A stretch of 64,000 bases of DNA from an uncultured Bacilli bacterium (GCA_944331895.1 CALVIX010000005.1:42214-106213); one strand, 5' to 3'; counted from the first letter of the stretch, positions 2,779 to 49,613 are shown. The notes: generated from the sequence alone by a model not told the origin. Translations and numbers: made by a program.

Positions 2779-3804
2779 ATGAAGAGTATCTATGACAAAA
2801 CATTAGCTGAGTTAGAAGAATATTTCGAATCGATCGGCGAAAAGAAGTTTAAAGCAAGACAACTTTACGATTGGTTATATAAAAAGAGAGTGACTTCTTT
2901 TGATGAGATGACGAATATCAAAAAGGAATTACGGACTTTTATCGCTTCGACTTATACGATGGAACCTTTAAAAATATTGGAACGTCAAAAGGGAGATGAC
3001 GTTGTTAAATATTTGTTTGAATTAAAGGATGGAAATAAGATCGAAGCTGTTTTAATGTTACATGACTACGGAAATAGCTTATGTGTATCAAGTCAAGTTG
3101 GATGTAATATGAGTTGTACGTTTTGCGAAAGTGGACGACTCAAAAAGGTTCGCAATCTAGATCCTTCTGAGATGGTATTGCAAATCATGATGATCGAAAA
3201 AGATTTGGATCTTACGATTACGCATCTCGTGTTAATGGGGATTGGAGAACCATTTGATAATTACGATAATGTGATGAAATTTGTCGATATTATCAATAGT
3301 CCATATGGAATCGGTTTGGGATCGCGACATATTACGATTTCCACTTGCGGAATTATCCCTAAGATTAAAGAGTTTATGCATCATGGAAAACAGGTGAACT
3401 TGGCAATCTCTCTTCATGCACCAAATGATACGTTGCGTAGTAAAATCATGCCGATCAATCGCGCATATCCTTTAGAGGAACTGATTATGACGGTTCGTGA
3501 ATACATTTCGGTTACGAATCGTCGTGTTACATTTGAATATATTTTATTACGCGATGTAAATGATACCGAAAAATGTGCTTTAGAACTATGCTCTTTATTA
3601 AAAGGAATGAATTGTTATGTCAATCTCATACCTTATAATGAGACAAGTCATATCATTTATAAAAAGAGTGAAAAGAATCAAATTATGAAATTTTACGATA
3701 TTTTAAAGAAACATCACATTCAAGTGACGATTCGAAAAGAATTCGGAACGAAAGTGAGTGCGGCTTGTGGCCAATTAAGATCAAATTATGAGGAGGGTGC
3801 CTAA
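2779..3804 (+). CDS. rlmN: 23S rRNA/tRNA m2A methyltransferase RlmN (radical SAM)
   Basis: CNMSCTFCESG radical-SAM cluster motif, conserved C-terminal GQL, and standard position upstream of prpC-prkC. Confidence 0.9.
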   Translation: MKSIYDKTLAELEEYFESIGEKKFKARQLYDWLYKKRVTSFDEMTNIKKELRTFIASTYTMEPLKILERQKGDDVVKYLFELKDGNKIEAVLMLHDYGNSLCVSSQVGCNMSCTFCESGRLKKVRNLDPSEMVLQIMMIEKDLDLTITHLVLMGIGEPFDNYDNVMKFVDIINSPYGIGLGSRHITISTCGIIPKIKEFMHHGKQVNLAISLHAPNDTLRSKIMPINRAYPLEELIMTVREYISVTNRRVTFEYILLRDVNDTEKCALELCSLLKGMNCYVNLIPYNETSHIIYKKSEKNQIMKFYDILKKHHIQVTIRKEFGTKVSAACGQLRSNYEEGA

Positions 3805-4538
3805 TGGAATTTTATTATCAGACGGATCCAGGAAAAGTAAGAGATCACAATGAAGATAGTGTGACGATTGTAAAAAATCAAAGTGGAGAATATTTGCTTG
3901 CTGTTGCAGATGGCATGGGTGGACACCGTGCCGGAGAGATCGCATCTAGTATTGTAATCGGAAATATTGGAACGCATTTCAAAGAAATGGGAAAGATCGG
4001 AACGAAGGAAGATGCGGTTCGTTGGCTGAAAGATGCAGTGAGTGAAGCTAATGTCGAAATTTATAAATATACGGCAGAACATCCTGAGAGCGAAGGAATG
4101 GGAACGACGATCGTAACGGCGATTTTAACAGATGAATTCCTTCTGTTTGGAAATTTAGGAGATAGTAGAGGATACGTTTTGAAAGATGGTAAGTTGCATC
4201 AGATTACGACGGATCATACGCTTGTGAATCTACTTGTGAAAAGTGGAGAACTTACCGAGGAGGAAGCAGAACATCATCCTCGTAAAAATGTTTTAATGAA
4301 AGCACTTGGAGCAAATACCAAGGTAGAGATGGACATCATCGATGTCGAGACAGATGTGGATGGAATTTTATTATGTAGTGACGGACTTACGAATATGTTA
4401 GATCACGATCAGATCGAAAAAGTACTAAACGAAGATTTAGAAATTGAAAAGATGGTACAAAAGTTAATTTACAAGAGTAATAATAGGGGTGGAAATGACA
4501 ACATTTCTATTGCATATTTGAAGAAAGAGGTGGCGTAG
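3804..4538 (+). CDS. prpC: PP2C-family Ser/Thr phosphatase
   Basis: AVADGMGGHRAGEIAS and CSDGL motifs. Paired with prkC. Confidence 0.9.
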   Translation: MEFYYQTDPGKVRDHNEDSVTIVKNQSGEYLLAVADGMGGHRAGEIASSIVIGNIGTHFKEMGKIGTKEDAVRWLKDAVSEANVEIYKYTAEHPESEGMGTTIVTAILTDEFLLFGNLGDSRGYVLKDGKLHQITTDHTLVNLLVKSGELTEEEAEHHPRKNVLMKALGANTKVEMDIIDVETDVDGILLCSDGLTNMLDHDQIEKVLNEDLEIEKMVQKLIYKSNNRGGNDNISIAYLKKEVA

Positions 4539-4539
4539 T

Positions 4540-6321
4540 GTGATTGTGAAAGGGCAAAAGATAAACGACCGTTATCAGATTATTCGCAGTATTGGAGAAG
4601 GTGGGATGGCCAATGTATATCTTGCCTACGATACGATTTTAGATAGAAATGTAGCTGTTAAGATTTTGCGTGGAGATCTTGCAGATGATGATAAATTTGT
4701 TCGAAAATTTCAAAGAGAAGCGATCAGTGCTAGTAGTTTGAGTCATCCGAATATCGTCGAGGTGTACGATGTTGGAGAGGACGATGGAAAATACTTTATC
4801 GTTATGGAGTATGTCGATGGACGTACGCTCAAGAGTTTGATTAAAAAACGTGGAGCTTTAACGTTGCCAGAAGTGATCGACATTATGTTACAACTGACGA
4901 GTGCGATTGCGCATGCACATGATAGTTATATTATCCACCGCGATATTAAGCCACAAAATGTCTTGATTTTAGATGATGGAATGGTAAAGATTACGGACTT
5001 TGGAATTGCGATGGCTTTAAATAGTAATGAATTGACACAGACCAATTCTGTGATGGGATCTGTTCATTATTTACCACCAGAACAAGCAAATGGTAGTGGT
5101 TCGACGATTAAGAGTGATATTTATTCGCTTGGTGTTTTGATGTTTGAACTTTTGACTGGAAAAGTACCATTCAAGGGAGATAACGCAGTTGAAATTGCAA
5201 TCAAACAGATGAAAGAACCAATTCCAAGTGTGTGTAAAATCAATCCAGAAATTCCACAGAGCGTCGAAAATATCATTTTGAAAGCGTGTGCGAAAAATCC
5301 TAAAAATCGTTATGAGAATGTACGAGAGATGCATGAGGATTTGAAAACATGTCTTTCTAAGGAAAGATTACACGAAGCGCGCAGTACTTATCAATATGCA
5401 GAGCAAGAAGTAGACGAGGGAACGAAACGTCTTCCGAATTTAAGTCGTCTCGATCATAGCAAAGCGCTGGATGAGTTAGAAGAGGAAGAAAAGAAAGACA
5501 AAAATACAAATCGTGCTCTTATCATTACTGGAGCAATTTGTGCGGCACTTGCAGTTCTCTTGATCGCATTCTTCTTCATCATTCCGAAACTTACAAATAG
5601 CAAAGAAGTAGAAGTTCCAGATGTGACAGAGATGACAGAAGCACAAGCAGAGCATGCACTGGAATCTGCCGGATTAGAAGTTGCAACCAAGACGAAGAGT
5701 GAATATAGTGATGACGTTGAAGAGGATAAAGTAATTAAAACGGAACCTTCTAAAAATAGAAGTGTCAAAAAAGGAACGAAAGTTACACTCATTTTATCTA
5801 AGGGTAAGAAAACATTCAAAGTAGAAAATTATGTTGGAAAAAACTACTATGAGGTAAAAGCTCAATTAGAAGCAAAAGGAATCAATGTTTTAACAGAAAC
5901 GAAAGAAGTATCAAATGAAGAAGGTGCTCAAGAAAATATTATTTTAGAACAGAAGACAGCTTCTGGGGCACAACTTGAAGTTGGAACGAAGTTATCGAAG
6001 GGAGATACAGTGACGTTAGTCATCCCTGATATTTATACGCAGTATCCTGATTTTGTCAACGATCATTGGAATTTGAGTAATGTTCAAAATTTCTGTAACG
6101 AGCACAATATCGTTTTAAATATCGAATATAAAGAGACGAATGATTATATAGAGGGAACGATTATTTCTCAATCTCGTGTTGCAGGAAGTAAGGTTGTTGC
6201 GAATACCGCATTGAAAGTTGTCGTTACCAAGGCAAAACCAACGCCAACACCGACACCTACACCAAGTCCAACGCCAACTCCATCCTCACCAGATTCAAAC
6301 ACTACTACTCCAGGAGTGTAA
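4540..6321 (+). CDS. prkC: PASTA-domain Ser/Thr protein kinase
   Basis: GEGGMANVY glycine loop, HRDIKPQN catalytic loop, DFG, one TM helix, three PASTA-like repeats and a Pro/Thr-rich C-terminal tail. GTG start. Confidence 0.9.
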   Translation: MIVKGQKINDRYQIIRSIGEGGMANVYLAYDTILDRNVAVKILRGDLADDDKFVRKFQREAISASSLSHPNIVEVYDVGEDDGKYFIVMEYVDGRTLKSLIKKRGALTLPEVIDIMLQLTSAIAHAHDSYIIHRDIKPQNVLILDDGMVKITDFGIAMALNSNELTQTNSVMGSVHYLPPEQANGSGSTIKSDIYSLGVLMFELLTGKVPFKGDNAVEIAIKQMKEPIPSVCKINPEIPQSVENIILKACAKNPKNRYENVREMHEDLKTCLSKERLHEARSTYQYAEQEVDEGTKRLPNLSRLDHSKALDELEEEEKKDKNTNRALIITGAICAALAVLLIAFFFIIPKLTNSKEVEVPDVTEMTEAQAEHALESAGLEVATKTKSEYSDDVEEDKVIKTEPSKNRSVKKGTKVTLILSKGKKTFKVENYVGKNYYEVKAQLEAKGINVLTETKEVSNEEGAQENIILEQKTASGAQLEVGTKLSKGDTVTLVIPDIYTQYPDFVNDHWNLSNVQNFCNEHNIVLNIEYKETNDYIEGTIISQSRVAGSKVVANTALKVVVTKAKPTPTPTPTPSPTPTPSSPDSNTTTPGV

Positions 6322-15621: not shown

Positions 15622-16662
15622 ATGAGTCATGAGATAGATTTAGGAAAATACCAAATTCGCACTGACTTAGCGGTGGAAGCAATTGGACAAGTAAAGGAAA
15701 AAGACAAAGAAAAAGTTGAGAGTAAGATAGAAGAAATTGATGGGGTTACTGTGACGGATGTCATTATTCGCGATGATGGGGGTAAAGAGATAGGAAAGAA
15801 AGATGGAAGATATATCACGGTAGAGTTTGAGGATATTACGGATCATGATAATCGAAAAAAAGTAGAATCAATTGTCGTTGAACAGTTGAAAAAGTTAATT
15901 GCCGATATTCATATGGAACAAAATCAAAGTTGTGTTGTCATTGGACTCGGCAACGATGCTTCGACTCCAGATGCACTTGGACCTATGGTCGCAAGACGCG
16001 TACTCGTTACAAATCATCTATTTGAATATGGGGAAGTAGAAGAAGGATTTCGGCCGGTTGCGACTTTTACGCCTGGCGTGATGGGTCAGACGGGAATTGA
16101 GACGATGGATTTAATTCGTGGACTCGTAGGGGAGATACATCCAGATTTTATGATCGTTGTAGATGCGCTTGCGAGTCAGAGTGTGAATAGGTTGAATCGA
16201 ACGATTCAGATGACCGATACGGGAATCCATCCAGGGAGCGGAGTAGGAAATCATAGGAAAGAAATTAGTAAAGAAACGTTGGGAATTCCTGTAATTGCGA
16301 TCGGAGTTCCCACGGTTGTCGATGCAGTTACGATCGTAAGTGATACAATTCATTATATGCAGAAACACTTTTCTTATATGAAGAGACATTATTCTGATCC
16401 TACTCATTTATTAACACCACTTACTTATATAGATCCTTCGAAAGAAGTAGGGGAAATGAGTGAAAAGGAAAAAGAGGATCTTTTTGGGATGCTAGGAACT
16501 TTAACTTCATCTGAGATGAAACAATTGATATTTGAGGTGTTGACACCGATTGGATATAATTTGATTGTTACGCCAAAAGAAGTGGACTTTATCATGTCAG
16601 GACTTACTGAAGTAATTCGAACATCGATCGATAGAGCATTACATCAAAAAGTGACAGAATAA
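15622..16662 (+). CDS. gpr: GPR spore germination protease
   Basis: RTDLAVEA, VIGLGN..TPDALGP, DALA motifs. Bacillus-like rpsT/gpr/spoIIP neighbourhood. Confidence 0.85.
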   Translation: MSHEIDLGKYQIRTDLAVEAIGQVKEKDKEKVESKIEEIDGVTVTDVIIRDDGGKEIGKKDGRYITVEFEDITDHDNRKKVESIVVEQLKKLIADIHMEQNQSCVVIGLGNDASTPDALGPMVARRVLVTNHLFEYGEVEEGFRPVATFTPGVMGQTGIETMDLIRGLVGEIHPDFMIVVDALASQSVNRLNRTIQMTDTGIHPGSGVGNHRKEISKETLGIPVIAIGVPTVVDAVTIVSDTIHYMQKHFSYMKRHYSDPTHLLTPLTYIDPSKEVGEMSEKEKEDLFGMLGTLTSSEMKQLIFEVLTPIGYNLIVTPKEVDFIMSGLTEVIRTSIDRALHQKVTE

Positions 16663-16744
16663 GCAATCTTTTCATATTGATTTCGACAGAATGGAACAAC
16701 ATAAACCTGTATCATCTATCATAGAATGATAGGGGAGGTGTTGT

Positions 16745-17758
16745 ATGCGAAAAAGGTTTGTAGCTCATAAACGTAGAAAGAAATGGAAGCTTAAATATCT
16801 CTTTTATGTAGTTCTTATTTATTTTGTATATCAATTTATGTTTGGTTGTGTTTTATCTTTAAAAATAGCACACAATAATGAAGCTTTTTTAAAGGCGATG
16901 TTACGTGATTCTAATCATCATTTGTTATATGAAAAAAATAGTGAATCTCTATTTACCAAAGTTACTAATTTTTTAACACAAGTCGATATCACAAAGCCGT
17001 TGACGATTATCGAAAAGGGATTTTTCTACGAAGAGAAGAAGATAGAACAAGTAGCTAAGACTTCGGCAGATGGAGATTTAGGAGTGATGCCTGAGACGAA
17101 GTATGTAAGCGATCCAAATCCAACACAGGTCGCAACGACACCACGGGTTTATATCTACAATACACATCAATTGGAAAACTATAGCATGGAAAATTTAGAA
17201 GTTTATAATATTACTCCGAATGTGATGATGACATCATATCTGTTGAGAGAAAAGTTGAATCGTCAAGGTATTTCTACAATTGTAGAAGAAGCGAACTTTA
17301 AAGAATATATGCAAGCAAATTCATGGGTTGGAAAAGATCAATATAAAGTGAGTAGACAGTTTTTAACAGAGACGTTAAAAGCATATCCCAATATGGATCT
17401 TATGATCGATTTACACAGGGATGCAATCAAAAAGACAGCTTCTACTTGGTCTGATGGTACGAAAAATTATGCGAAAGTACTTTTTGTCGTTGGAACAGCC
17501 TATGATGGATATGAGAAAAATTTGGAACTTGCAAATGTTTTTCATCAAAAGATCAATGCGAAATATCCGGGTTTATCAAGAGGTGTCATGCAAAAAGAAG
17601 GAGCTGGAGTGAATGGAATTTACAATCAAGATGTAAGTTCTAATATGCTTTTAATCGAATGTGGCGGCTATGAAAATACGATCGATGAAGTTGCAAATAC
17701 GACGGATATATTAGCGACGATCATTACGGAATATTTGGGTGAAGCACATGAAATTTGA
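16745..17758 (+). CDS. spoIIP: stage II sporulation protein P
   Basis: N-terminal TM helix, YIYNTH..E.Y and DLHRD motifs of SpoIIP-type amidase. Synteny. Confidence 0.8.
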   Translation: MRKRFVAHKRRKKWKLKYLFYVVLIYFVYQFMFGCVLSLKIAHNNEAFLKAMLRDSNHHLLYEKNSESLFTKVTNFLTQVDITKPLTIIEKGFFYEEKKIEQVAKTSADGDLGVMPETKYVSDPNPTQVATTPRVYIYNTHQLENYSMENLEVYNITPNVMMTSYLLREKLNRQGISTIVEEANFKEYMQANSWVGKDQYKVSRQFLTETLKAYPNMDLMIDLHRDAIKKTASTWSDGTKNYAKVLFVVGTAYDGYEKNLELANVFHQKINAKYPGLSRGVMQKEGAGVNGIYNQDVSSNMLLIECGGYENTIDEVANTTDILATIITEYLGEAHEI

Positions 17759-21937: not shown

Positions 21938-21962
21938 AATGCAAGGAATTGCATTCTTTTTT
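21937..21962 (+). terminator. rho-independent terminator after rsmD, directly abutting the bacteriocin exporter gene
   Basis: GAATGCA-aggaat-TGCATTC followed by TTTTTT. The ORF-track TTG start (21949) lies inside this hairpin. Confidence 0.7.
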
Positions 21963-21990
21963 GTGGAACAATAAAAGTGGAGGTGAAACT

Positions 21991-24087
21991 ATTCGATATC
22001 CATTTATAAAACAACGTGAAGAAAAAGATTGTGGAATTGCATGTTTACAGATGATCATGGCATATTATCATTCTTATGTACCCAAAGAAGAATTACGTCA
22101 ACTTACGCACACGACGAAAAAAGGAACCAGTGCCTATGGTTTATTACAAGGAGCTGAGCAATTAGGATTTCGCGTACGAGCGTTAAAGGGGGACTTTTCA
22201 TCGTTGCAGATGGAACCACTCGCATACCCTGTGATTGCTCATATCGTTAAGGAAAAAGTCTACTATCATTATGTAGTGATTTATAAGATAGACCATAAAC
22301 ATAAAAAAATTTTGATTGCTGATCCTGCAAGTAGATTATCTTGGATTTCATTTCGATCTTTTCAAACGGAATGGAACCATATTATTTTAGTATTAGAACC
22401 GATGTTGCAACTTAGAAATGAAAAAAAGGCATCCATTTTGGAGTTGTGTTATCAAATTGTAAGTCGTTATCGTAAAGAACTTTGCATTTTATTCTTTTTT
22501 GCATTGATTCAAATGATACTATCTCTCATCATTTCCTATTATTTTAAAGTGGCAGTTGATTTTATTTCTCATTTTGGGACAAAGTCTGAATTTTACCTCA
22601 TCTCCGTTTTATTTTTCATGTTTTTCATATTACATCATCTTTCATTACTATTTTATTCTGATGTAATTTTAAAGTGGGGAACCGCCCTCGACCTATCTTT
22701 TACGAAAGATATTTTTCAAAAATTAGTTTCACTTCCATACGATAAATTTGATGGACGATCTACAGGTGAAGTTATGACGTATTTTCAAGAGTTGATGCAA
22801 CTAAAGGAAATTTTGATTACTTTTGTAAGTTCGATCTTGTTAGATATTTTATTTTGTGCTGGTGCACTTCTTATTTTAAGTACGATATCGATGGTTCTTT
22901 TTACTCTATGTTTATGTATGATATTTTCTTATGGGATTGTGTTTATGTTGTGTAAGCGATACTATCAAGTATATATCCCGTATGTCAAAAGAGAGCAAGG
23001 AATCGTATCTCACTGGTTGATCGAGAGCATGCGTGAATATGAGACGGTAAAGGGTTCACACCTAGAACGCGTTTTAAGCTCGTTTTTCGAAAGACATCAT
23101 TATCGCTTTGAAAAGGAAATGTACCATTTGAAACAATTAGAACGCAAAGAACAAGTTTTAGAAGAAACACTTTTGGGAATTATTCGTTTCCTCTTTATTT
23201 TTTGGGGAGGGGTTATGATGTTAAAGCAAGAACTTGCAATCGCTAGTTTTGTATTTGCATATATGTTATTTGATTATATCATCTCGCCCATGAATTCTCT
23301 TTATCGATTTTGTTTAGAATGGATACAAGTAAAGACTGCTGTTTGCGAATTAGCATTTCTATGGAAGAAAAGCGAGAGTGATGGAAAAATTGTATTAACG
23401 GGAATCTCGACGATCGAATTTCGAAATTTAAGTTATGCATATGAAGAAGATATGTGGGTATTAAAAAATATCGATATCGTCTTAAAGGAAAAAGAACATG
23501 TCATGTTATTTGGACCATCTGGAAGCGGAAAAAGTACCTTGTTTCGATTGTTGATGAAGTTTTATCGATGTCGAGGGAAGTTTATTTTTATCAATGCGGT
23601 TGATTATGATCAGTATGAAATGAATTCTTTCATGCGCCATATTTGTTATATATCGCAGAAAGAAACTTTATTTACGACGAATTTGTATGAAAATATTACA
23701 CTCGCACGAGAAGTATCTAAATCTGAGTTCTTAAAAGTATGTCGCGTATGTCAGCTTAATTTTATCGAAAAATTTCAAAATGGATATTATATGTTAGTAG
23801 AAGAAAATGGGAAAAACTTATCTGGAGGACAGCGTCAACGAATCATATTAGCGCGTGCTTTATTATTGCCATGTGAATTTTTGATTATCGATGAAGGACT
23901 CAATCAAGTAGAGGTCACATTAGAGAGAAAAATTCTTCAGGATGTCATGCGATATTATCCTGAAAAGACAATTATTTATATTACACATCGATATCAAAAT
24001 TTTGATTTGTTTTCGAGACTCCTATATATGAGACAAGGTAGGATATTAAAAGATTGGTATCGAGAAAGGAAGGAAATCGTAGATTGA
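21991..24087 (+). CDS. peptidase C39 domain bacteriocin ABC exporter (ATP-binding/permease)
   Basis: N-terminal YPFIKQREEKDCGIACLQMI (catalytic Cys), HYVVIY..ADP (His/Asp), six-TM ABC membrane domain, GPSGSGKST, LSGGQRQR, LIIDEG. Start uncertain: ATT 21991 sits 5 nt after GGAGGTG. TTG 21949 and 21961 lack an RBS. Confidence 0.85.
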   Translation: MRYPFIKQREEKDCGIACLQMIMAYYHSYVPKEELRQLTHTTKKGTSAYGLLQGAEQLGFRVRALKGDFSSLQMEPLAYPVIAHIVKEKVYYHYVVIYKIDHKHKKILIADPASRLSWISFRSFQTEWNHIILVLEPMLQLRNEKKASILELCYQIVSRYRKELCILFFFALIQMILSLIISYYFKVAVDFISHFGTKSEFYLISVLFFMFFILHHLSLLFYSDVILKWGTALDLSFTKDIFQKLVSLPYDKFDGRSTGEVMTYFQELMQLKEILITFVSSILLDILFCAGALLILSTISMVLFTLCLCMIFSYGIVFMLCKRYYQVYIPYVKREQGIVSHWLIESMREYETVKGSHLERVLSSFFERHHYRFEKEMYHLKQLERKEQVLEETLLGIIRFLFIFWGGVMMLKQELAIASFVFAYMLFDYIISPMNSLYRFCLEWIQVKTAVCELAFLWKKSESDGKIVLTGISTIEFRNLSYAYEEDMWVLKNIDIVLKEKEHVMLFGPSGSGKSTLFRLLMKFYRCRGKFIFINAVDYDQYEMNSFMRHICYISQKETLFTTNLYENITLAREVSKSEFLKVCRVCQLNFIEKFQNGYYMLVEENGKNLSGGQRQRIILARALLLPCEFLIIDEGLNQVEVTLERKILQDVMRYYPEKTIIYITHRYQNFDLFSRLLYMRQGRILKDWYRERKEIVD

Positions 24088-24485
24088 ATCTCTCTATCTC
24101 GAAAGGACTTTTTACACTTATCTTGTCGTGGGGAATGATCGTCATCTTTGTGGTTGTTATCGCGTTTTCTGTTCCGTATCAAATGTCACGTTCTTTTGCA
24201 GGAATGATGGTATTGAAAGATTCTGAATATTGGTTGAAAGGATATCTTAGGATAGATGATATTGCTTTTTTTAAAAGTGGCAGTCTTTGGATCGAAAATC
24301 AAGAATATAAAGTTCTAGATCTCATATATACGAATGAAATCGTCGCGGGAGAAGACGGGGAAGTATACCAAGCAATCTTGATTGGAGGTAATTGGAGCAT
24401 GGAATTAAAAGAAAATTATAAAAGTATCGTCGCAGTTTATCGAACAGAGAAAAAAACTTGGGTGCAAAGATATATGAAATGGTAG
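24054..24485 (+). CDS. small membrane-anchored protein in the position of a bacteriocin accessory or immunity protein
   Basis: TTG start at 24054 or 24084, both overlapping the exporter stop. One TM helix (GLFTLILSWGMIVIFVVVIAF) plus a ~100-aa beta-rich domain. No confident family. Confidence 0.5.
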   Translation: MVSRKEGNRRLNLSISKGLFTLILSWGMIVIFVVVIAFSVPYQMSRSFAGMMVLKDSEYWLKGYLRIDDIAFFKSGSLWIENQEYKVLDLIYTNEIVAGEDGEVYQAILIGGNWSMELKENYKSIVAVYRTEKKTWVQRYMKW

Positions 24486-24499
24486 AAAGGAGGAAAGAA

Positions 24500-24655
24500 G
24501 TGGAACATATCAGAAAAGAAGAACTAAGAAGTATCATTGGTGGTGGAGTGAGTACTGGTGTCGGATTGGCACTTGCAGTTACGGCAGGAATTGTTTTTGT
24601 GATCGGTGTGATCGATGGTTATTTAAGACCACTTCTGTGTCACACAAATGAGTGA
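24500..24655 (+). CDS. double-glycine leader bacteriocin precursor, peptide A (51 aa)
   Basis: GTG 6 nt after AAAGGAGGAAA. Leader MEHIRKEELRSIIGG has I-4, L-7, E-8, I-12, M-15 and G-2 G-1. Mature 36 aa: GVSTGVGLALAVTAGIVFVIGVIDGYLRPLLCHTNE, hydrophobic and rich in small-xxx-small motifs. Confidence 0.7.
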   Translation: MEHIRKEELRSIIGGGVSTGVGLALAVTAGIVFVIGVIDGYLRPLLCHTNE

Positions 24656-24821
24656 GTTAACAAAGAAAGAGGCAGTACAGATTTATGGTGGTGTAAATCT
24701 CTCTGGAACGATCGTAACCGCATTTTTGAAAGGGATCGATATTATCTTAGAATTAGGTAGAAACCTTGGGAGTGCGATTCGCAGAATTCAGGATCATAAT
24801 GTCTGTCCATACCAAAAATAG
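24648..24821 (+). CDS. double-glycine leader bacteriocin precursor, peptide B (57 aa, not in the ORF track)
   Basis: ATG inside ATGAGTGA, overlapping the peptide A stop. Leader MSELTKKEAVQIYGG (I-4, E-8, L-12). Mature 42 aa: VNLSGTIVTAFLKGIDIILELGRNLGSAIRRIQDHNVCPYQK, amphipathic and net cationic. Confidence 0.65.
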   Translation: MSELTKKEAVQIYGGVNLSGTIVTAFLKGIDIILELGRNLGSAIRRIQDHNVCPYQK

Positions 24822-42861: not shown

Positions 42862-42972
42862 TAAAATTCTATATTGTGTAGTACCTCATGTTGCTACAAC
42901 CGCACGAACCAGGTTATAAACACGTTAGTGTACCTATTAGGCGAGTCTTAGAAAATAAAGAAGGAGGTCAAT
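42862..42972 (+). promoter_or_regulatory. possible L21-leader type regulatory 5' UTR
   Basis: 111-nt structured-looking gap directly upstream of rplU-prp-rpmA, where Firmicutes carry the L21 leader. Assigned by position only. Confidence 0.35.
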
Positions 42973-43272
42973 ATGAAAGCAGTTATTGAAACTGGTGGAA
43001 AGCAATATTTAGTAGAAAAAGGTAGTGTTATCTACGTTGAAAAAATGGATGCTGAGCCAGGAAAGAAAGTAAATTTCAATGTACTTATGGTAGATGGAAC
43101 TGTTGGACATCCATATGTTACAGATGCAAAAGTAACTGGTGAAGTTGTAAAACACGGAAAGCAAAAGAAAGTTGTCGTTTACAAATACAACGCTAAGAAA
43201 AAATACCGTAGAAGACAGGGACACCGTCAACCATATACAAAAATTGAAATTAAATCTGTAACGACAAAATAG
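42973..43272 (+). CDS. rplU: 50S ribosomal protein L21
   Basis: [17 protein letters not shown]... is the canonical L21 N-terminus. Confidence 0.95.
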
Positions 43273-43273
43273 T

Positions 43274-43594
43274 ATGATACAGATTCATATCAAAGGAACG
43301 GAAAAAGAAGTAAAAGAAATTACGATTTCAGGACATGCAGGATATAGTCATGCTGGGAATGATATCGTATGTGCTGCAGTAAGCAGTATCGCAATTACTT
43401 CGATCAATGCCATTTTGAGATTAGATCAAAATGCAATTCAATATGAAGAAGATGAAGGTTTTATTTCAATTAAAGTATTGAAGCATGATAAAGTAACGGT
43501 TACACTCATTACGAATTTAATCGAACTACTGATCGAATTACAAAAAGATTATAAGAAGTATATAAAAATTAATAAGGAGGTGTCCTCATGTTAA
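43274..43594 (+). CDS. prp: ribosomal-processing cysteine protease Prp (YsxB)
   Basis: ISGHAGY...[11 protein letters not shown]is/Cys dyad. Located between rplU and rpmA. Confidence 0.85.
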
Positions 43595-43881
43595 AGTTAT
43601 TACAATTGAATATTCAATTATTTGCACATAAAAAAGGGCAAGGTTCTACGCAGAACGGACGTGACAGTATCTCTAAACGTTTAGGAGCAAAAGCTGCTGA
43701 CGGAGAATATGTAACAGGTGGATCTATTTTATATCGTCAACGTGGAACGAAAATTTACCCAGGAAAGAACGTAGGTATCGGAAGTGATGATACAGTGTAT
43801 GCAAAAATTTCTGGATATGTCAAATTTGAACGTGTTGGAAAAGATAGAAAACAAGTTAGTGTTTATCCTGAAAGAGGATAA
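43588..43881 (+). CDS. rpmA: 50S ribosomal protein L27 with N-terminal propeptide
   Basis: [21 protein letters not shown]: Firmicute propeptide followed by the mature AHKKG.. N-terminus, a Prp substrate. Confidence 0.95.
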
Positions 43882-43894
43882 TTTATACAAAAAA

Positions 43895-43926
43895 GGTACG
43901 AAAGTATCTTTTTTTTGATATAATGA
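43895..43926 (+). repeat. direct repeat copy 1 (rpmA terminator plus TGATATAAT)
   Basis: GGTACGAAAGTATC-T8-GATATAATGA. Near-identical to 47386-47417. Confidence 0.8.
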
Positions 43927-44053
43927 AGTTAGTAGATATACAGTAGGTCTATTGAATGTGTTTCAGTATGAAAAAGAGGTATTTGAAACAAATATACCGT
44001 CTAATAATGTCAACATATGTTATCTCTTTCAAGAGGGGATTGGGAGGGGTTTT

Positions 44054-44506
44054 ATGAAAATATTAAAAAGACTATTTTATATTTCTTGTTTTGCATGTAT
44101 CCTTAGTATCGGAGGGGTAAATGCACAGTCATTGGCTCCTACATTGAAAGCTGGAACCAATGATAATTATTTGAGTTTAGCTACCTCTGTTCCGGCACAT
44201 AATGGATTTACGACTACTGCACGAAGGACAAAGTATCAAACGTTATTAAAACAAGCGATTCGATATGCTTACACTGTCCCAGCTTCTGATAGTGTAGATG
44301 TAATGTTAAAGAAAACGACAGTAGATGGAGGAACTACTTCAAATGCTAGTGGTTGGGAAGTAATTTCTTCCGCAGGAGATGATGTGATTTTTAATTCACC
44401 TGCAGCTATGACGACAGGAACATTTTATCTGTATATAGATTCAAGAATTGGATATACCAAACCGACAATGGTGTATGGTACTTGGTATTTAGATGACAAC
44501 AGGTAA
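44054..44506 (+). CDS. Sec-secreted small protein of unknown function (mature ~124 aa)
   Basis: ATG after GGGAGGGG. Signal peptide MKILKRLFYISCFACILSIGGVNA|QS. Ser/Thr/Gly-rich, probably beta-rich, ends in GTWYLDDNR. No family recognised. Confidence 0.65.
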   Translation: MKILKRLFYISCFACILSIGGVNAQSLAPTLKAGTNDNYLSLATSVPAHNGFTTTARRTKYQTLLKQAIRYAYTVPASDSVDVMLKKTTVDGGTTSNASGWEVISSAGDDVIFNSPAAMTTGTFYLYIDSRIGYTKPTMVYGTWYLDDNR

Positions 44507-44547
44507 TTAATTTTTTATAATCCCCTCAATTTATTTAGGAGGTTTGT

Positions 44548-45360
44548 ATGCAATATCAGAAAAAGTTAAATTATAGCTTTCTTTTGCTCTTGTTTTTATC
44601 TTTGGTAATTACTCTTATTTTGGTTTTAAACGGATATGGGGCATTTTCCTCCGTGGAAGTTTTTCAGGATATGAATGCGACAGTTTTATGGTATTCATTA
44701 TTAAATAGTCATTATGGAGCTAATACAGCATTTATTCTTCCAATGATTTTAGCTTTCGGTACGACATATTATTTTTATCAACAACTTAAAAGTAATATCT
44801 ATCAAGATATGGTTTTAAGAAAAGGTTACAAGCAAACGATGTTATCTATGATATTTCGTTGTTATAAAATGGCGCTATTTTTTCCTTTGATGATGCTTGT
44901 ATTTTATGGTATTTGCTTTCTTATCGCGCCACGAATTGTTACAGATTCAAATTCGTTAGGAACATTTTTATTGACTAATCCGTTTGGTATGGATGTCATT
45001 TTGGTATTAAAAAATATAGGAGTCGTATTATTGTTACAGTATTTATTTGCTATCTTTGTCGTCAATATCTCTCTTTTTAGCATTCGATATTCAAAGAAGT
45101 TTTATCTTTCACTATTATTTACATTCTTGTTACTTAATATTTGCAATTATGTTATGGTAGATGTAGGAGTTAGTTTATTACATGTCAGAGGAGAATATTT
45201 ATTCGAACTTATGATGACAAATGAAATAGCAAATGCTAAATTGACCTTTTTACTTACTTTACCACTTTCATTTATTTTATGTTTTCTTGCTTATGGCAAG
45301 AAAGAAAGGGTTGTGATCTCTCATGCTCAAACAGTTCGTTCAAACGCATCTAAATCATAG
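44548..45360 (+). CDS. ABC-2/LanE-LanG-like permease 1 (about 6 TM)
   Basis: RBS TAGGAGG. 270-aa polytopic hydrophobic protein. Confidence 0.65.
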   Translation: MQYQKKLNYSFLLLLFLSLVITLILVLNGYGAFSSVEVFQDMNATVLWYSLLNSHYGANTAFILPMILAFGTTYYFYQQLKSNIYQDMVLRKGYKQTMLSMIFRCYKMALFFPLMMLVFYGICFLIAPRIVTDSNSLGTFLLTNPFGMDVILVLKNIGVVLLLQYLFAIFVVNISLFSIRYSKKFYLSLLFTFLLLNICNYVMVDVGVSLLHVRGEYLFELMMTNEIANAKLTFLLTLPLSFILCFLAYGKKERVVISHAQTVRSNASKS

Positions 45361-46081
45361 GCTACATAAGGGCGTTTTATGTTATTTATCACTTGGAACC
45401 TTTCTTGCAATGTTGTATGCTGGGACCGCTTCTTATTTTGAAACCATTGGTTTAATTTTATCGAATAAAACATATCTTTGTGTTTTTGTTTTTCCTGCGT
45501 TTTTGATGTTTTTTCTATATTACGATAATGATTTATCTTGTAATCATTTTATCGTTACACGATTTACATCTAGAAAGAAATTTCTTAGGTTTCGATGGAA
45601 AAGCATGATACTGCACACATTAGTTTTGTTTGTCGAACTTCTTTTGGTGATTACGATATTAAATGCGATATTGTATTCGCTTCATTTTAGAATTGAGTTA
45701 TATGAACTTATACTTCCTTTAAAAAAGATATCGATATCAAATATCGTTTATGCGTTAAGCCGAATTTTAAAAGTAGTAGGTGGAATATTGTTTTTACAAG
45801 CTTTATTATTTATTTTAAAATCTTTTACTAAAATGGAATCTATTTCTGTCATATTGATGATTGGCATTATTTTATTTATTTATGTGCAGCCAACTATCGT
45901 TCATCTTTCATTTCTTTCCTTCCTACTTCCAGGGACACATATTTATCAATATTGTAGCGATGTTTCTTTTAGCTTATGGATGGTGTTGGATTTTCTTTAT
46001 TTTTGTGTAGTTAGTTTGCTTTGTTATTTTATACATTTTTCAATACTTCAAAGACGATCGTTGTTAGGAGAAAAAATATGA
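45323..46081 (+). CDS. ABC-2/LanE-LanG-like permease 2
   Basis: 252-aa polytopic protein. 38-nt overlap with the preceding gene. Confidence 0.6.
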   Translation: MLKQFVQTHLNHRLHKGVLCYLSLGTFLAMLYAGTASYFETIGLILSNKTYLCVFVFPAFLMFFLYYDNDLSCNHFIVTRFTSRKKFLRFRWKSMILHTLVLFVELLLVITILNAILYSLHFRIELYELILPLKKISISNIVYALSRILKVVGGILFLQALLFILKSFTKMESISVILMIGIILFIYVQPTIVHLSFLSFLLPGTHIYQYCSDVSFSLWMVLDFLYFCVVSLLCYFIHFSILQRRSLLGEKI

Positions 46082-46755
46082 GATCGATATTAATGAGAGA
46101 TTTTTATACGACGTTTTCAAAGAATAATATTATTTTTCTTTTGATTATTATAATCTTTCTATGTAATGCTTTTTTGCTACCTATAGATTCAGAACATATC
46201 ATGCTAAAATTTTTTGGATTTGATTCAACCTATCAAAGCGCATCTTATCTCACATTTTGCTTGTGTTTTCATTTTTACTTTATATGGTTTTTCTACCGAT
46301 TATACACACGAGATATTTCTCGTAGTAGGGAGTTTCTGTGGCTTAGAATCTCACCACATAAATGGATGTTTTATAAATCGATATCTATTTTAATTATGAT
46401 GTTACTGTTGCAATTTATTTTGTTTTTTCTCGCAACGATCGTTGGCTTCTTACGTGGAATTCTTGAGTTCGCCTTAGATTTTAGTGTATTTTATATGGTT
46501 TTAGGTCATTTTAGTATACTAGTTTTATGCATCTTAATTGGAGAGGTATCCTCAGTTATTAGCATTATTTTAACGATTCTTTTTTATACAGTTCCAATAT
46601 TATTTTCAGAATCTTTTCAAACTTCTATATGTTATGCATCTTTTTATCAATCACATATACGCATTATTATACTTGTTTTTGTATCGGTTGTGATGATTTT
46701 CGTGATTGCATTTAGATTAAAGTACCAATCGGAAAAGGAGGAATATTATGATTGA
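46078..46755 (+). CDS. ABC-2/LanE-LanG-like permease 3
   Basis: ATG at 46078 in an ATGA overlap, behind GGAG. 225-aa polytopic protein. Confidence 0.6.
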   Translation: MRSILMRDFYTTFSKNNIIFLLIIIIFLCNAFLLPIDSEHIMLKFFGFDSTYQSASYLTFCLCFHFYFIWFFYRLYTRDISRSREFLWLRISPHKWMFYKSISILIMMLLLQFILFFLATIVGFLRGILEFALDFSVFYMVLGHFSILVLCILIGEVSSVISIILTILFYTVPILFSESFQTSICYASFYQSHIRIIILVFVSVVMIFVIAFRLKYQSEKEEYYD

Positions 46756-47380
46756 ACTTTTACATGCTACAAAAAAATTAGGTGATCAAATTGTTTTGAA
46801 CGATATTAACGCTCGATTTGAAGAGGGGAAAATTATTGGTATTGTAGGGAGAAATGGTAGCGGAAAAAGTATGTTATTTCGTTTGTTATGTGGGTTGATT
46901 TATCCGACGAAAGGGCAAGTTTTGGTAAATGGAATCGATTTAAAAAAACATAATGTATTTCCACTTGAAGTACGCGCTTTAATCGAAAGACCACATTTTA
47001 TTGATAATATGACTGGATTTGAAAATTTATCGTTACTTGCTTCGATGCAAAAGAAAATTGGTTCAGAAGAAATTGAACGTTATTTAAAATTATTTCATCT
47101 TGATCATGAGAAGAATAAACCGGTGTCAAAATATTCTCTTGGAATGAAACAGAAATTAGGGATTATTCAAGTGTTAATGGAAGATGCTGATGTTATGATT
47201 TTAGATGAGCCATTTTCAGGTCTAGATAAGGAATCGGTAAAAGAAGTGAAGAAAATATTAAAAAAAGAAAGATCTCAGAATAAAACGATTTTAATTGCAT
47301 CACATATAGAAAGTGATATTGATGATTTGTGTGACGAGGTTTACGAGATGGATACGGGAAAATTAACTAAATCAAGTTAA
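46748..47380 (+). CDS. LanF-like ABC ATPase with an E-loop in place of the Q-loop
   Basis: GRNGSGKS Walker A, ALIERPHFIDNMTGFENL (Glu at the Q-loop position; compare NisF ALIEAP..NL, recalled from memory), YSLGMKQKLGI signature, MILDEP Walker B, ASH H-loop. Confidence 0.75.
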   Translation: MIELLHATKKLGDQIVLNDINARFEEGKIIGIVGRNGSGKSMLFRLLCGLIYPTKGQVLVNGIDLKKHNVFPLEVRALIERPHFIDNMTGFENLSLLASMQKKIGSEEIERYLKLFHLDHEKNKPVSKYSLGMKQKLGIIQVLMEDADVMILDEPFSGLDKESVKEVKKILKKERSQNKTILIASHIESDIDDLCDEVYEMDTGKLTKSS

Positions 47381-47385
47381 CAAAG

Positions 47386-47417
47386 GGATACGAAAGTATC
47401 TTTTTTTGATATAGTGA
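47386..47417 (+). repeat. direct repeat copy 2 (terminator after the cassette)
   Basis: GGATACGAAAGTATC-T7-GATATAGTGA. Forms a GATAC-gaaa-GTATC hairpin plus T run. Confidence 0.8.
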
Positions 47418-47505
47418 TTATCGTGTTTTTTGTAAATTCTAGTGTGTCATGTGCTAGTAATTTTACAAAACTAGTGTATAATAGAAGAGAAAAAGAGGTG
47501 ATACC

Positions 47506-48780
47506 ATGTTTATAGATGAAGTGACGATGGATTTGATCGCAGGTCGCGGCGGAGATGGTTGTATGGCATTCAGACGCGAGAAATACGTCGAAATGGGTGG
47601 CCCATTTGGTGGTAATGGCGGAAAGGGAGCTAGCATTATTTTTGAAGCCGACGAGGGATTAAATACACTGATCGATTTACGATATAAAAAATTAATAAAA
47701 GCTCCAAAAGGGGAGAATGGTCAAGGGAAAAACTGTCATGGGAAGAATAGCCCTGACGTAATTGTAAAAGTTCCAATCGGTACTGTTGTGACAGATGTTG
47801 ATACAAATTTAATTGTAGCTGATTTAACGAAGCATGGAGAAAGAGCAGTCGTTGCCCGTGGTGGACGTGGTGGAAGAGGAAATACAGCGTTTGCGACACG
47901 TCAAAATCCAGCTCCTAATTTTGCTGAAAATGGAGAACCAGGAGAAGAAAAACAAGTAAAAGTAGAATTAAAGTTACTTGCTGATGTTGGACTTGTCGGA
48001 TTACCAAGCGTTGGAAAATCGACGATTATCTCAAAAATTTCTGCATCAAAACCAAAGATTGCAGCATATCATTTTACGACGTTGAGACCAAATTTGGGAG
48101 TTGTTCGTGCGAGTGATGGAAGAAGCTTTGTCGTTGCCGATTTACCAGGGCTCATCAAGGGTGCTTCTTTAGGGGAAGGACTTGGAGATCGATTTTTAAA
48201 ACATATCGAGAGAACGCGAGTGATTGCACACGTCATCGATATGAGTGGGTTTGAAGGAAGAGATCCGTACGATGATTATGTTACGATCAATGAAGAGTTA
48301 AAGAACTTTAATGAATCTCTTATAAAGAAACCACAAATTGTCGTAGCAAATAAGATGGATGCTCCGGAGGCGAAAGAACATTTGCAAGCATTTAAAAAGA
48401 AAGTTACGGATGTTCCTGTATATGAAATTTCTGCACTAGAAAATAAAGGATTGCAACAAGTTGTCGATGCACTTGCGGATAAATTAGATACGATTGCGAA
48501 AAAGCCTCTCTATGAAGAAGAACGTTTCGAAAGCCACGTTGTTTATAAATTTAAGAAAGAACAACCATTTACAGTGACAAATGAAAATGGAACTTGGGTG
48601 ATTCGCGGAGATGAAGTAGAAAAATTATTCCGCATGTCTCGACTCAATACAGAAGAAGCGTTCTTACGTTTTTCAAATCAGTTAAAGAAACTTGGAATAG
48701 AGGATAAACTAAGAGAACTTGGTGCTCAAGATGGAGATAACGTTCGAATTTTAGATTACGAGTTTGATTATCGTTTATAG
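47506..48780 (+). CDS. obg: GTPase Obg/CgtA
   Basis: MFIDEV..GGDGCMAFRREK Obg fold, GLPSVGKST, DLPGLI, C-terminal OCT domain. Confidence 0.95.
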   Translation: MFIDEVTMDLIAGRGGDGCMAFRREKYVEMGGPFGGNGGKGASIIFEADEGLNTLIDLRYKKLIKAPKGENGQGKNCHGKNSPDVIVKVPIGTVVTDVDTNLIVADLTKHGERAVVARGGRGGRGNTAFATRQNPAPNFAENGEPGEEKQVKVELKLLADVGLVGLPSVGKSTIISKISASKPKIAAYHFTTLRPNLGVVRASDGRSFVVADLPGLIKGASLGEGLGDRFLKHIERTRVIAHVIDMSGFEGRDPYDDYVTINEELKNFNESLIKKPQIVVANKMDAPEAKEHLQAFKKKVTDVPVYEISALENKGLQQVVDALADKLDTIAKKPLYEEERFESHVVYKFKKEQPFTVTNENGTWVIRGDEVEKLFRMSRLNTEEAFLRFSNQLKKLGIEDKLRELGAQDGDNVRILDYEFDYRL

Positions 48781-48836: not shown

Positions 48837-49613
48837 ATGAATATAATGATAGGAATTATAGTTCCGCTGATTGGAACGATGCTTGGGGCAGGGATGGTTT
48901 TTTTCATGAAGCATACGCTCCCCGAGAAACTAGAAAAATCGTTACTAGGCTTTGCATCAGGTGTTATGATTGCAGCTTCTGTCTGGTCTTTGTTAGTGCC
49001 GGCAATCGAAATGGCAGAAGAACAAGGACAAACTCCATGGATAGAACCTTCGATTGGTTTTTTGCTAGGAATCGGATTTCTATTGTTATTAGACGTAATA
49101 ATTCCCCATTTACATCTTCATAGCAATGAACCAGAAGGTGTAAGAGCACGATTAAAAAAGTCTACGATGTTGCTTCTCGCCGTTACTCTGCACAATATTC
49201 CGGAAGGAATGGCAGTAGGAGTTGTCTTCGCAGGCTTTGCAGATTCTAACACGGGAATTACACTTGCAGGTGCCTTCGCTCTTTCGATTGGAATTGCTAT
49301 TCAAAATTTTCCAGAAGGTGCAATCATTTCCATGCCACTTCGAAGTGAAGGGTTCACTAAGAAAAAAGCGTTCTTGCATGGAGCACTATCGGGAGTGGTC
49401 GAACCGATTGGAGCAGCAATTACGATTTTGTTGACGAGTCAAGTGCTTCCTATTTTACCTGTTTTATTATCGTTTGCGGCTGGAGCAATGATTTATGTGG
49501 TGGTAGAAGAATTGATTCCGGAATCTCATACAGGGGAACATTCTAATTTAGGTACGATTGGAGTGGCACTTGGTTTTGTATTGATGATGATTTTAGATAT
49601 TGCATTAGGGTAG
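48837..49613 (+). CDS. ZIP-family divalent metal transporter
   Basis: LHNIPEGMAVG and IQNFPEG motifs. About 8 TM. Confidence 0.8.
   Translation: MNIMIGIIVPLIGTMLGAGMVFFMKHTLPEKLEKSLLGFASGVMIAASVWSLLVPAIEMAEEQGQTPWIEPSIGFLLGIGFLLLLDVIIPHLHLHSNEPEGVRARLKKSTMLLLAVTLHNIPEGMAVGVVFAGFADSNTGITLAGAFALSIGIAIQNFPEGAIISMPLRSEGFTKKKAFLHGALSGVVEPIGAAITILLTSQVLPILPVLLSFAAGAMIYVVVEELIPESHTGEHSNLGTIGVALGFVLMMILDIALG

Follow-up and report, generated by a model that had tools for sequence, protein, structure and literature searches.

The interval between the ribosomal-protein gene rpmA and the essential GTPase gene obg raises a simple question in an uncultured Bacilli bacterium: what are the five genes that stand there, and how did they come to this place? 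They lie in a 64-kb stretch of DNA (the window; all coordinates are window positions unless a comparison locus is named, and the locus runs on the plus strand throughout) and encode a secreted protein, three polytopic membrane proteins and an ATP-binding cassette (ABC) ATPase, bracketed by two copies of a short repeat. An earlier note had read this five-gene cassette as a lantibiotic self-protection module of the LanFEG type that had been acquired from outside, had entered an empty site between rpmA and obg and had thereby duplicated the rpmA terminator. Comparison with relatives leads to a different answer. With a probability of about 60%, we think that the cassette is a native, interchangeable allele of a variable slot, that it encodes a type V ABC exporter operon, and that it is swapped between lineages by homologous recombination.

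Two alleles in the rpmA-obg slot

The Obg protein of the window is 100% identical to the Obg of Candidatus Fimihabitans intestinipullorum CHK197-8231, a metagenome-assembled genome. This lineage is known from the chicken gut and belongs to the GTDB order RF39, family CAG-822 (PMC8035907); NCBI places the organism in Mycoplasmatota incertae sedis. About 28 independent contigs of the genus were retrieved by exact-protein lookups that used L27, Prp, Obg and also the ATPase as queries. Comparison loci and contigs of relatives, which are taken from metagenome assemblies, are given L-numbers below. The gene order common to the genus contigs is uvrC-mutL-proS-radC-mreCD-M23-M50-rplU-prp-rpmA-(slot)-obg-ZIP-SIR2-RR-HK-M14-rnfCD, where RR and HK stand for response regulator and histidine kinase.

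The L27 and Obg queries are the two samplings that are unbiased with respect to the cassette, and both gave the same picture. Among the matches listed for L27, nine of ten contigs had a different allele in the slot and one of ten had the cassette; the matches listed for Obg were again divided nine to one. This different allele, about 495 bp long, contains a single 159-amino-acid (aa) gene of the isochorismatase family (PF00857). The proposal that the cassette is accessory and varies between strains is therefore borne out, since most relatives carry this other allele instead.

The same cannot be said for the empty site into which the cassette was thought to have been inserted. An empty-site allele would read rpmA, one repeat unit, TTATCGTGTTTTTTG... 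and obg, and would be marked by the junction k-mers GATATAATGAAGTTATCGTGTTTTTTGTAAATTC or rpmA-3'end...GATATAGTGATTATCGTG. Among about 28 independent Candidatus Fimihabitans contigs, reached by lookups with L27, Prp and Obg, there was no empty site, only the two alleles. A scan of JGI metagenomes for the sequence to the right of the second repeat copy returned two unrelated chance matches, from a collection that does not contain this organism.

The limits of the exchanged segment are set by contig L065, which carries the isochorismatase allele and is of the same lineage as the window (over 4.8 kb upstream, its nucleotide identity is 97.3%, compared to 87.4% for L001). Homology between L065 and the window ends at 43931 and resumes at 47453. 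The right repeat copy falls inside the segment defined in this way, and the window's lineage holds both alleles, the cassette in the window and the isochorismatase gene in L065.

43932-47452, plus strand: variable segment (the cassette allele), 3521 bp, delimited by the blastn breakpoints against the same-lineage contig L065

The rpmA-obg position is generally fluid in the clade. In other species representatives the interval ranges from 58 bp to 4.2 kb, and its cargo includes genes for NUDIX, GNAT, peptidase U32 and Tex proteins as well as unknowns. In the literature searched, we found no link of rpmA-obg to a variable hotspot. In the distant relative L020, a prophage with a minus-strand tyrosine integrase lies directly downstream of an orthologous cassette (6123-7430 of L020); next to its junction is CTAGTGTATA, a motif similar to the -10 region of obg. 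The rpmA-obg interval may therefore also be a phage attachment area.

Probable exchange between lineages

The identity profiles around the slot are mosaic. Between the window and F. intestinipullorum contigs with the isochorismatase allele, nucleotide identity is 79-92% over 35-42.6 kb and 52-56.5 kb, as opposed to 96-98% in the left flank rplU-prp-rpmA, a value that holds across lineages, and 98-100% from 47453 to about 51.9 kb. The latter tract of about 4.5 kb (47453 to about 51900) comprises obg, the ZIP and SIR2 genes, the response regulator and the start of the histidine kinase gene, and it is 98-100% identical whichever slot allele is present. It starts exactly at the right edge of the slot and looks like a recently homogenised recombination tract.

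Three backgrounds carry the cassette allele, and at least two carry the isochorismatase allele. In L080, a cassette 97-100% identical to that of the window sits on an F. intestinipullorum background, with a downstream flank that is 99-100% identical to L001 but 79-93% identical to the window. In L024, which represents a separate GTDB species, the cassette is 93-98% identical, compared to 79-91% for the background. Because the same allele occurs on several backgrounds and identity is mosaic, we infer that alleles are exchanged at this slot by homologous recombination via the conserved flanks. The cassette would thus be held at low frequency in Candidatus Fimihabitans and would cross species-level lineages by way of rplU-rpmA on one side and obg on the other, replacing, or being replaced by, the small isochorismatase-family gene.

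The repeat unit at the two ends of the cassette

The observation that the five genes are bracketed by a duplicated terminator holds. The repeat unit is about 45 nt long, beyond the roughly 32 nt first described, since it comprises the hairpin and T-run and also a promoter-like element.

43889-43931, plus strand: left repeat unit; hairpin with a GAAA loop, T8 and the extended -10-like element TGATATAAT at 43916-43924; ends where homology with the isochorismatase allele ends
47381-47424, plus strand: right repeat unit, within the cassette allele; hairpin, T7, the promoter-like element TGATATAGT at 47407-47415 and TTATCGT at 47418-47424

The left copy consists of GGTAC-GAAA-GTATC (43895-43908), T8 (43909-43916) and GATATAATGA (43917-43926), the right copy of GATAC-GAAA-GTATC (47387-47400), T7 (47401-47407) and GATATAGTGA (47408-47417). 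They share the exact 19-nt core TACGAAAGTATCTTTTTTT (43897-43915, identical to 47389-47407), which matches only these two places in the window even when three mismatches are allowed. Nineteen nt is also the longest common substring of the upstream and downstream intergenic regions, a length reached in 0 of 200 shuffles (maximum 14), and a common origin of the two copies is supported.

With their U-tails, the hairpins fold at -9.8 kcal/mol (z = -3.7, left) and -9.9 kcal/mol (z = -4.6, right). They lie 8-14 nt past a stop codon, have short, AU-rich stems and are followed by 7-8 U, so that both copies are putative terminators. The element behind the T-run is a candidate promoter part, and in the left copy TGATATAAT corresponds to the extended -10 consensus. 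Its likely origin is indicated by the compact relative L026, in which the rpmA-obg gap is only 58 bp (an empty site) and reads hairpin-T8-GGTATAATGAAAG-TATGAGGTGAT-ATT-ATG(obg). Because this layout puts GGTATAATGAAAG just upstream of the obg ribosome-binding site (RBS), the motif after the T-run would be the -10 box of obg. Judged by this comparison, the repeated unit appears to be the ancestral junction, made up of the rpmA terminator and the -10 box found ahead of obg in compact relatives.

It does not follow that insertion of the cassette produced the second copy, and the comparative data speak against this part of the earlier proposal. Agreement with the left junction of the isochorismatase allele (GATATAATGAAGTTATCGT) extends further for the right copy (GATATAGTGA--TTATCGT) than for the left copy of the window. 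L024 has a local GTGCC variant as its left hairpin and shares its right copy with the window, so that the right copy travels with the cassette. The isochorismatase allele has the left copy only, with no hairpin before obg. Flanking repeats were confined to the window and L024, and none of significance was found around six other copies of the module (L020, L021, L022, L058, L060, L062). The repeat is therefore peculiar to this locus and no sign that the module is a mobile element.

The cassette allele would thus bear its own, slightly diverged junction copy at its 3' end, which may end cassette transcription and place a promoter-like box ahead of obg. With such a copied terminator/promoter junction, obg would stay insulated from the cassette and keep a promoter-like box. 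A second, smaller duplication was noticed 5' of obg, where TTCTAGTGTGTCAT (47437-47450) and AACTAGTGTATAAT (47469-47482) resemble each other and the latter holds the proximal -10 box. This pair suggests repeated rearrangement of promoter-like sequence in the interval.

The direct repeats that flank the segment speak for an insertion. If a LanFEG-like immunity or resistance cassette had recently arrived from outside at an empty rpmA-obg site, a site-specific or Campbell-type event could have duplicated the terminator, and a single crossover between a circular, unit-bearing cassette and the chromosomal unit would yield just this arrangement. Against such an event stand the isochorismatase gene found at the site in place of an empty allele and the missing terminator repeats around orthologous cassettes in the same slot of distant relatives. 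Further evidence on this model comes from the age of the cassette and from its ATPase.

Age and origin of the cassette

The two closest relatives of the ATPase outside the genus are encoded in L020 and L021, and in both the cassette occupies the same slot. The layout of L021 is M50-rplU-prp-rpmA-(three membrane-protein genes)-ATPase-obg; that of L020 is rplU-prp-rpmA-(146-aa secreted protein)-(three membrane-protein genes)-ATPase, followed by the prophage. The proteins of L020 and L021 show the following identities to those of the window.

ATPase: 61-62%
Secreted protein: 39%
Permeases: 26-37%
Obg: 73%
L27: 77%
Prp: 52%
M50: 37-40%

The divergence of the cassette and that of its flanks are comparable. 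In L021, the gene for the first membrane protein (permease 1) is split into open reading frames (ORFs) of 49 and 176 aa (2630-3427 of L021) and the secreted-protein gene is absent; a decaying module or a fault of the assembly could account for this.

Base composition does not set the cassette apart either. The GC content at third codon positions (GC3) is 0.23-0.27 in the cassette genes, inside the range of 0.17-0.33 in the flanks, and the lower total GC is explained by membrane-protein composition. GC content is thus no evidence of a foreign origin.

We also searched for a vehicle. As the earlier note had stated, there is no integrase nearby: ORF and Pfam analysis identified no integrase or transposase in the cassette, between rpmA and obg, or in the flanks. 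The sole phage integrase among the compared loci is that of L020, in the separate downstream prophage. Searches with permease 1 in plasmids, phage records and the viral contigs of IMG/VR gave no match. With the cassette DNA, plasmids were matched in generic ABC-ATPase segments only (66-73% identity over at most 8% of the query).

A recent foreign acquisition is thus largely contradicted by GC3 values within the range of the flanks, by diverged orthologous cassettes in the same slot, and by identity profiles of the recombination type; no link to a recombinase, plasmid or phage was found for the cassette in these searches. The cassette would instead be native to the clade, with diverged versions retained in the same slot of distant relatives.

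The cassette genes and their products

The five genes of the cassette are as follows.

44054-44506, plus strand: secreted protein, 150 aa; signal peptide ending in VNA before Q, mature protein of 126 aa
44548-45360, plus strand: membrane protein 1 (permease 1), 270 aa; predicted type V (ABC-2) exporter transmembrane domain
45323-46081, plus strand: membrane protein 2, 252 aa; polytopic; 38-nt overlap with the gene for membrane protein 1
46078-46755, plus strand: membrane protein 3, 225 aa; polytopic; 4-nt overlap with the gene for membrane protein 2
46748-47380, plus strand: ABC ATPase, 210 aa; 8-nt overlap with the gene for membrane protein 3

The overlaps of 38, 4 and 8 nt agree with the description of five tightly coupled genes between the repeat copies, and from this arrangement the genes would be co-transcribed. 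The five-gene layout recurs elsewhere, beside the capsule genes Wzz/CpsD/CpsB in L060/L061 and again in L062/L063. Homologues of the secreted protein head the cassettes of L019, L020, L024 and L060. A version without the secreted gene follows der-spoVIF in L022, L058 and L059 and is itself followed by variable genes, including a gene with an Ntox44 toxin domain in L059. The cassette is thus a discrete, conserved and self-contained module, and with the exception of the ATPase its products (four of five) match no described family.

The ATPase belongs to ABC_tran (PF00005, 1.2e-30) and has a Walker A motif GRNGSGKS, a signature motif YSLGMKQK, a Walker B motif ILDEP and an H-loop ASH. In LanF ATPases, the Gln of the Q-loop is replaced by Glu, giving rise to the so-called E-loop (bioRxiv 10.1101/2025.10.09.681468). 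A Glu at this position had been noticed in the cassette ATPase, and Glu80 (ALIERP) is indeed located there. However, it had been taken as a lantibiotic sign, and this is where the argument fails: the Glu is kept in 115 of 121 relatives, and therefore it marks the ATPase family and is no evidence of lantibiotic specificity.

In profile searches, the best NCBIfam match of the ATPase was indeed the lantibiotic-protection family TIGR03740, with a score of 155.1 bits that stays far under the cutoff of 309.75 bits, and no LanE or LanG match was obtained for the membrane proteins. The next matches of the ATPase were DrrA (142 bits), GldA (118 bits) and PmtC (116 bits). The E-loop Glu and this best curated match are what the ATPase contributes to the model of a recently inserted LanFEG cassette; the low score, the missing LanE/LanG match, the presence of three membrane genes and the lack of lantibiotic genes in the window count against it. 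The comparative data largely contradict this model, and we regard it as very unlikely. A role of the module in anti-phage defence was also considered and rejected, as the PADLOC matches reflect generic P-loop similarity of the ATPase only.

Permease 1 had no sequence match in Pfam, NCBIfam or PDB, and an exhaustive HMMER search among 1.84 billion proteins found only 32 representatives. An AF2 model based on a 29-sequence alignment was of good quality (pLDDT 85.8, pTM 0.84). In Foldseek, the best matches were NosY and PmtD (TM-score 0.52-0.60 over the full length), followed by ABCG5/8 and ABCG25, with weak E-values of 0.05-0.3; almost all of the best 40 matches were type V-VII ABC domains. According to this model, permease 1 has the 6-helix type V (ABC-2) fold, an assignment that applies to permease 1 alone of the three membrane proteins. 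The earlier claim of three permeases is therefore upheld in part: there are three polytopic membrane proteins, and the first can be recognized as an ABC-type permease.

None of 37 members of the three membrane-protein families matched an NCBIfam or Pfam permease model at E <= 1. Comparison of membrane proteins 1, 2 and 3 with each other by hhalign gave probabilities of at most 5%, even with the 29-sequence profile, and a common origin of the three is neither shown nor excluded. A basic LR/TR...K motif was noticed just past the second hydrophobic segment of each (MVLRKGYKQ at 88-96 of protein 1, VTRFTSRKK at 78-86 of protein 2, WLRISPHKW at 88-96 of protein 3). In the NisFEG model, this is where a short intracellular helix touches the E-loop; the similarity does not reach statistical significance.

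The secreted protein is a near-orphan with three matches among 5.8 billion clusters. Its mature form of about 13-14 kDa is hydrophilic and near-neutral (isoelectric point 6-8) and contains no Cys. Together with its four homologues, it had no Pfam or NCBIfam match, and a profile of the five homologues gave nothing significant against PDB sequences and Pfam. AF2, given an alignment of 4 sequences, produced an unreliable model (pLDDT 39) that suggests beta strands at most. The secreted protein probably works together with the transporter outside the cell.

What the module may do

Under the reading that we prefer, that of a native slot allele, the operon would encode an ATPase with an E-loop, three polytopic membrane proteins that are unlike one another, and a beta-rich protein of about 14 kDa secreted by the Sec route. 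We infer that it forms an exporter that acts at the interface of membrane and envelope, with the secreted protein as an extracellular partner.

The substrate can be guessed at by analogy. The nearest ATPase families suggest that the module would protect against a membrane- or envelope-active peptide, by expelling it or by shielding the cell, as LanFEG/LanI, PmtCD and related ABC-2 systems do; that the cassette is dispensable in about 90% of sampled strains, diverges very fast and passes between lineages fits this role. We put this forward as a tentative proposal that may well turn out to be wrong. Should the module indeed protect against an antibacterial agent, or deliver one, it would be relevant to competition among strains in the gut microbiome.

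The gene order also calls to mind bacteriocin operons. In operons of the lactococcin 972 type, a gene for a secreted protein is followed by one or more membrane-protein genes and then by an ABC ATPase gene. The cassette might accordingly be a toxin-plus-immunity module, in which the secreted 14-kDa protein is a Sec-dependent bacteriocin and the ABC system protects the producer. That the cassette is self-contained, strain-variable and fast-evolving fits such a module. A paralogous module of three permeases and an ATPase precedes the Ntox44 toxin-domain gene in L059, and the cassette ATPase matches TIGR03608, the ABC family of the lactococcin 972 group. However, this match (103 bits) is far under the cutoff of 254.85 bits, the secreted protein has no match to Lactococcin_972 or another bacteriocin family, and its mature form is near-neutral and hydrophilic and not cationic. 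Moreover, the modules in L021 and L022/L058 keep the transporter without the secreted gene. Taken together, these points make a toxin-plus-immunity module unlikely.

The structural matches of permease 1, which include NosY, the ABCG lipid and sterol exporters, LptG and MlaE, could also be read in favor of an ordinary envelope-maintenance exporter for a lipid, glycolipid or surface polymer. The secreted protein would then be an extracellular acceptor or chaperone, comparable to NosD/NosL for NosFY. One related module lies beside the capsule genes Wzz/CpsD/CpsB, and the slot cargo of other species (NUDIX, GNAT, U32, Tex) is of a housekeeping-like kind. Yet a core envelope function is hard to reconcile with a cassette that is dispensable in about 90% of sampled strains and replaced there by an unrelated enzyme gene, and its very rapid divergence and near-orphan status would be unusual for such a function. 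We think it improbable that the module is of this kind.

A more far-reaching idea is that these modules represent a new family of four-component type V ABC systems, in which an E-loop ATPase is joined by three mutually dissimilar membrane subunits and by a secreted beta-protein of its own. In this proposal, which we find doubtful, the family would be widespread in RF39-type gut Bacilli, its membrane part would be heterotrimeric or exchangeable, it would handle peptides or toxins outside the cell in a new way, and the slot would maintain a balanced presence/replacement polymorphism across species.

Several points weigh against the reading as a native exporter allele. The lineage backgrounds were judged from only about 5-9 kb of flanking genes in metagenome assemblies. 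Among about 20 other species representatives with Obg proteins of 60-74% identity, none has the cassette at the slot, and repeated site-directed acquisition could still account for its distribution in place of an ancient polymorphism with losses. A simple consensus terminator scan listed neither hairpin, as the stems have fewer than three G-C pairs, and terminator and promoter roles are deduced from folding and motif comparison. Of the membrane proteins, only the first is recognized as an ABC domain, and three partners fit poorly with an exporter of two transmembrane domains. Finally, the role in peptide protection is a guess from family resemblance and from the accessory, fast-evolving behaviour of the cassette.

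Flanking genes and other variable positions

The conserved genes on either side of the slot, which serve as homology arms in the proposed exchange, are these.

42888-42958, plus strand: L21 leader RNA, Rfam RF00559, 52.2 bits compared to a gathering score of 36, E = 4.8e-9
42973-43272, plus strand: rplU, ORF; Ribosomal_L21p in syntenic loci
43274-43594, plus strand: prp, ORF; Peptidase_Prp (Pfam)
43588-43881, plus strand: rpmA, ORF; L27 in syntenic loci
47453-47505, plus strand: shared upstream region of obg, GCTAGTAATTTTAC..., with a -10-like TATAAT at 47477-47482 and the RBS GAGGTGA
47506-48780, plus strand: obg, Pfam GTP1_OBG; first gene of the right homology arm

The conserved rplU-prp-rpmA operon, which forms the left homology arm, starts with an L21 leader upstream of rplU, as expected for a canonical operon of this type. 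The leader was the sole Rfam match; the noncoding parts of the cassette contained no known RNA element of the Rfam type.

Other positions in the neighborhood vary as well. At the position of proS (37381-38817), two types of prolyl-tRNA synthetase occur: the window, L001 and other contigs have a 478-aa form with a ProRS-C_1 domain, and L003, L004 and L007 (at 3537-5222 of these contigs) have one of 561 aa with a tRNA_edit domain. The pattern resembles an allelic replacement, here of an essential aminoacyl-tRNA synthetase. The ZIP transporter gene (48837-49613) shows a presence/absence polymorphism and is missing between obg and SIR2 in L002, L007, L078 and L082. Between uvrC and mutL (32108-35164), the window has genes for two proteins, one of 767 aa whose N terminus carries a prepilin-type methylation motif and one of 245 aa. 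In F. intestinipullorum contigs (L001 and others) mutL comes directly after uvrC, and uvrC-mutL is therefore another variable slot. The window also contains the sporulation genes for the germination protease Gpr (Peptidase_A25) and SpoIIP (15622-17758), an odd fit for a placement in Mycoplasmatota/RF39.

Comparison with known systems

LanFEG systems (NisFEG, EpiFEG, NukFEG) resemble the cassette in several respects. They are of the type V/ABC-2 class, have separate genes for the ATPase and for small permeases with six transmembrane segments, and carry the E-loop Glu. An extracellular partner, LanI, is encoded alongside and is analogous to the secreted protein of the cassette. However, the cassette ATPase reaches 155 bits where TIGR03740 has a cutoff of 309.75 bits, and the membrane proteins have no detected similarity to LanE or LanG. 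There are three membrane proteins instead of the two of LanFEG, where LanE and LanG assemble with the ATPase as F2:E:G, and the ATPase gene comes last and not first. In contrast to LanI, the secreted partner has a site of the signal peptidase I type and no clear lipobox. No lantibiotic biosynthesis gene lies near the cassette, as had been noted before, or elsewhere in the window, which contains no gene of the LanB, LanC or LanM type and no ORF longer than 767 aa. The cassette thus falls outside LanFEG on four counts, namely ATPase score, permease families, subunit number and association with lantibiotic genes.

The only bacteriocin locus in the window is of the class II type with double-glycine leaders, about 20 kb from the cassette (21949-24821). 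It encodes its own exporter, a 712-aa C39-peptidase/ABC protein (21949-24087), a 143-aa protein without family (24054-24485), and two ORFs with double-glycine leaders, at 24458-24655 (...LRSIIGG before GVSTGVG...) and 24648-24821 (MSELTKKEAVQIYGG before VNLSG...). These peptides are not lantibiotics. A link between the cassette and the peptides encoded near 24.5 kb could not be demonstrated, the peptides being of class II and having their own C39 exporter.

The phenol-soluble-modulin exporter of Staphylococcus (PmtABCD/PmtCD) is likewise an ABC-2 system, which expels amphipathic peptides and protects the producer. PmtD (6xjh_A, TM-score 0.57/0.60) is among the best structural matches of permease 1. 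The cassette ATPase matches PmtC and PmtA with 116 and 102 bits, far under the cutoffs of 375 and 350 bits, and Pmt differs from the cassette in having two ATPases, two permeases and no secreted partner.

In NosDFY(L), a type V ABC transporter also acts with an extracytoplasmic, beta-rich partner, and NosY was the top Foldseek match of permease 1 (TM-score 0.52-0.58). However, these Foldseek matches have a sequence identity of only 10-14%, the window genes examined include none annotated as nos, and NosDFY has an unrelated role, the copper-centre assembly of N2O reductase.

Operons of the lactococcin 972 type share with the cassette the succession of secreted protein, membrane component(s) and ATPase and the nature of a self-contained accessory module. 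The cassette differs from them in the lack of a Lactococcin_972 match, in the ATPase score (103 bits for TIGR03608, cutoff 254.85 bits) and in having three small permeases in place of one large membrane protein.

For the slot itself, the closest parallels are loci such as pneumococcal cps (dexB-aliA) and the blp bacteriocin/immunity loci. There, too, non-homologous gene sets alternate between conserved genes, one allele occurs on several backgrounds, and identity is mosaic. The rpmA-obg slot differs in being much smaller (0.5 vs 3.5 kb for its two alleles), in lying inside a ribosomal-protein/obg block and in belonging to an uncultured host. The allele biology is clear and of a known kind: a fixed slot between a ribosomal-protein operon and obg holds interchangeable cargo that is traded among gut lineages, and this account, better supported, takes the place of an acquired lantibiotic-immunity island. 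The transporter family is undescribed, and the five-gene ABC module is conserved in uncultured Bacilli of the chicken gut and other animal guts. We regard the cassette as an uncharacterised variant of the familiar type V ABC transporter class, of modest interest.

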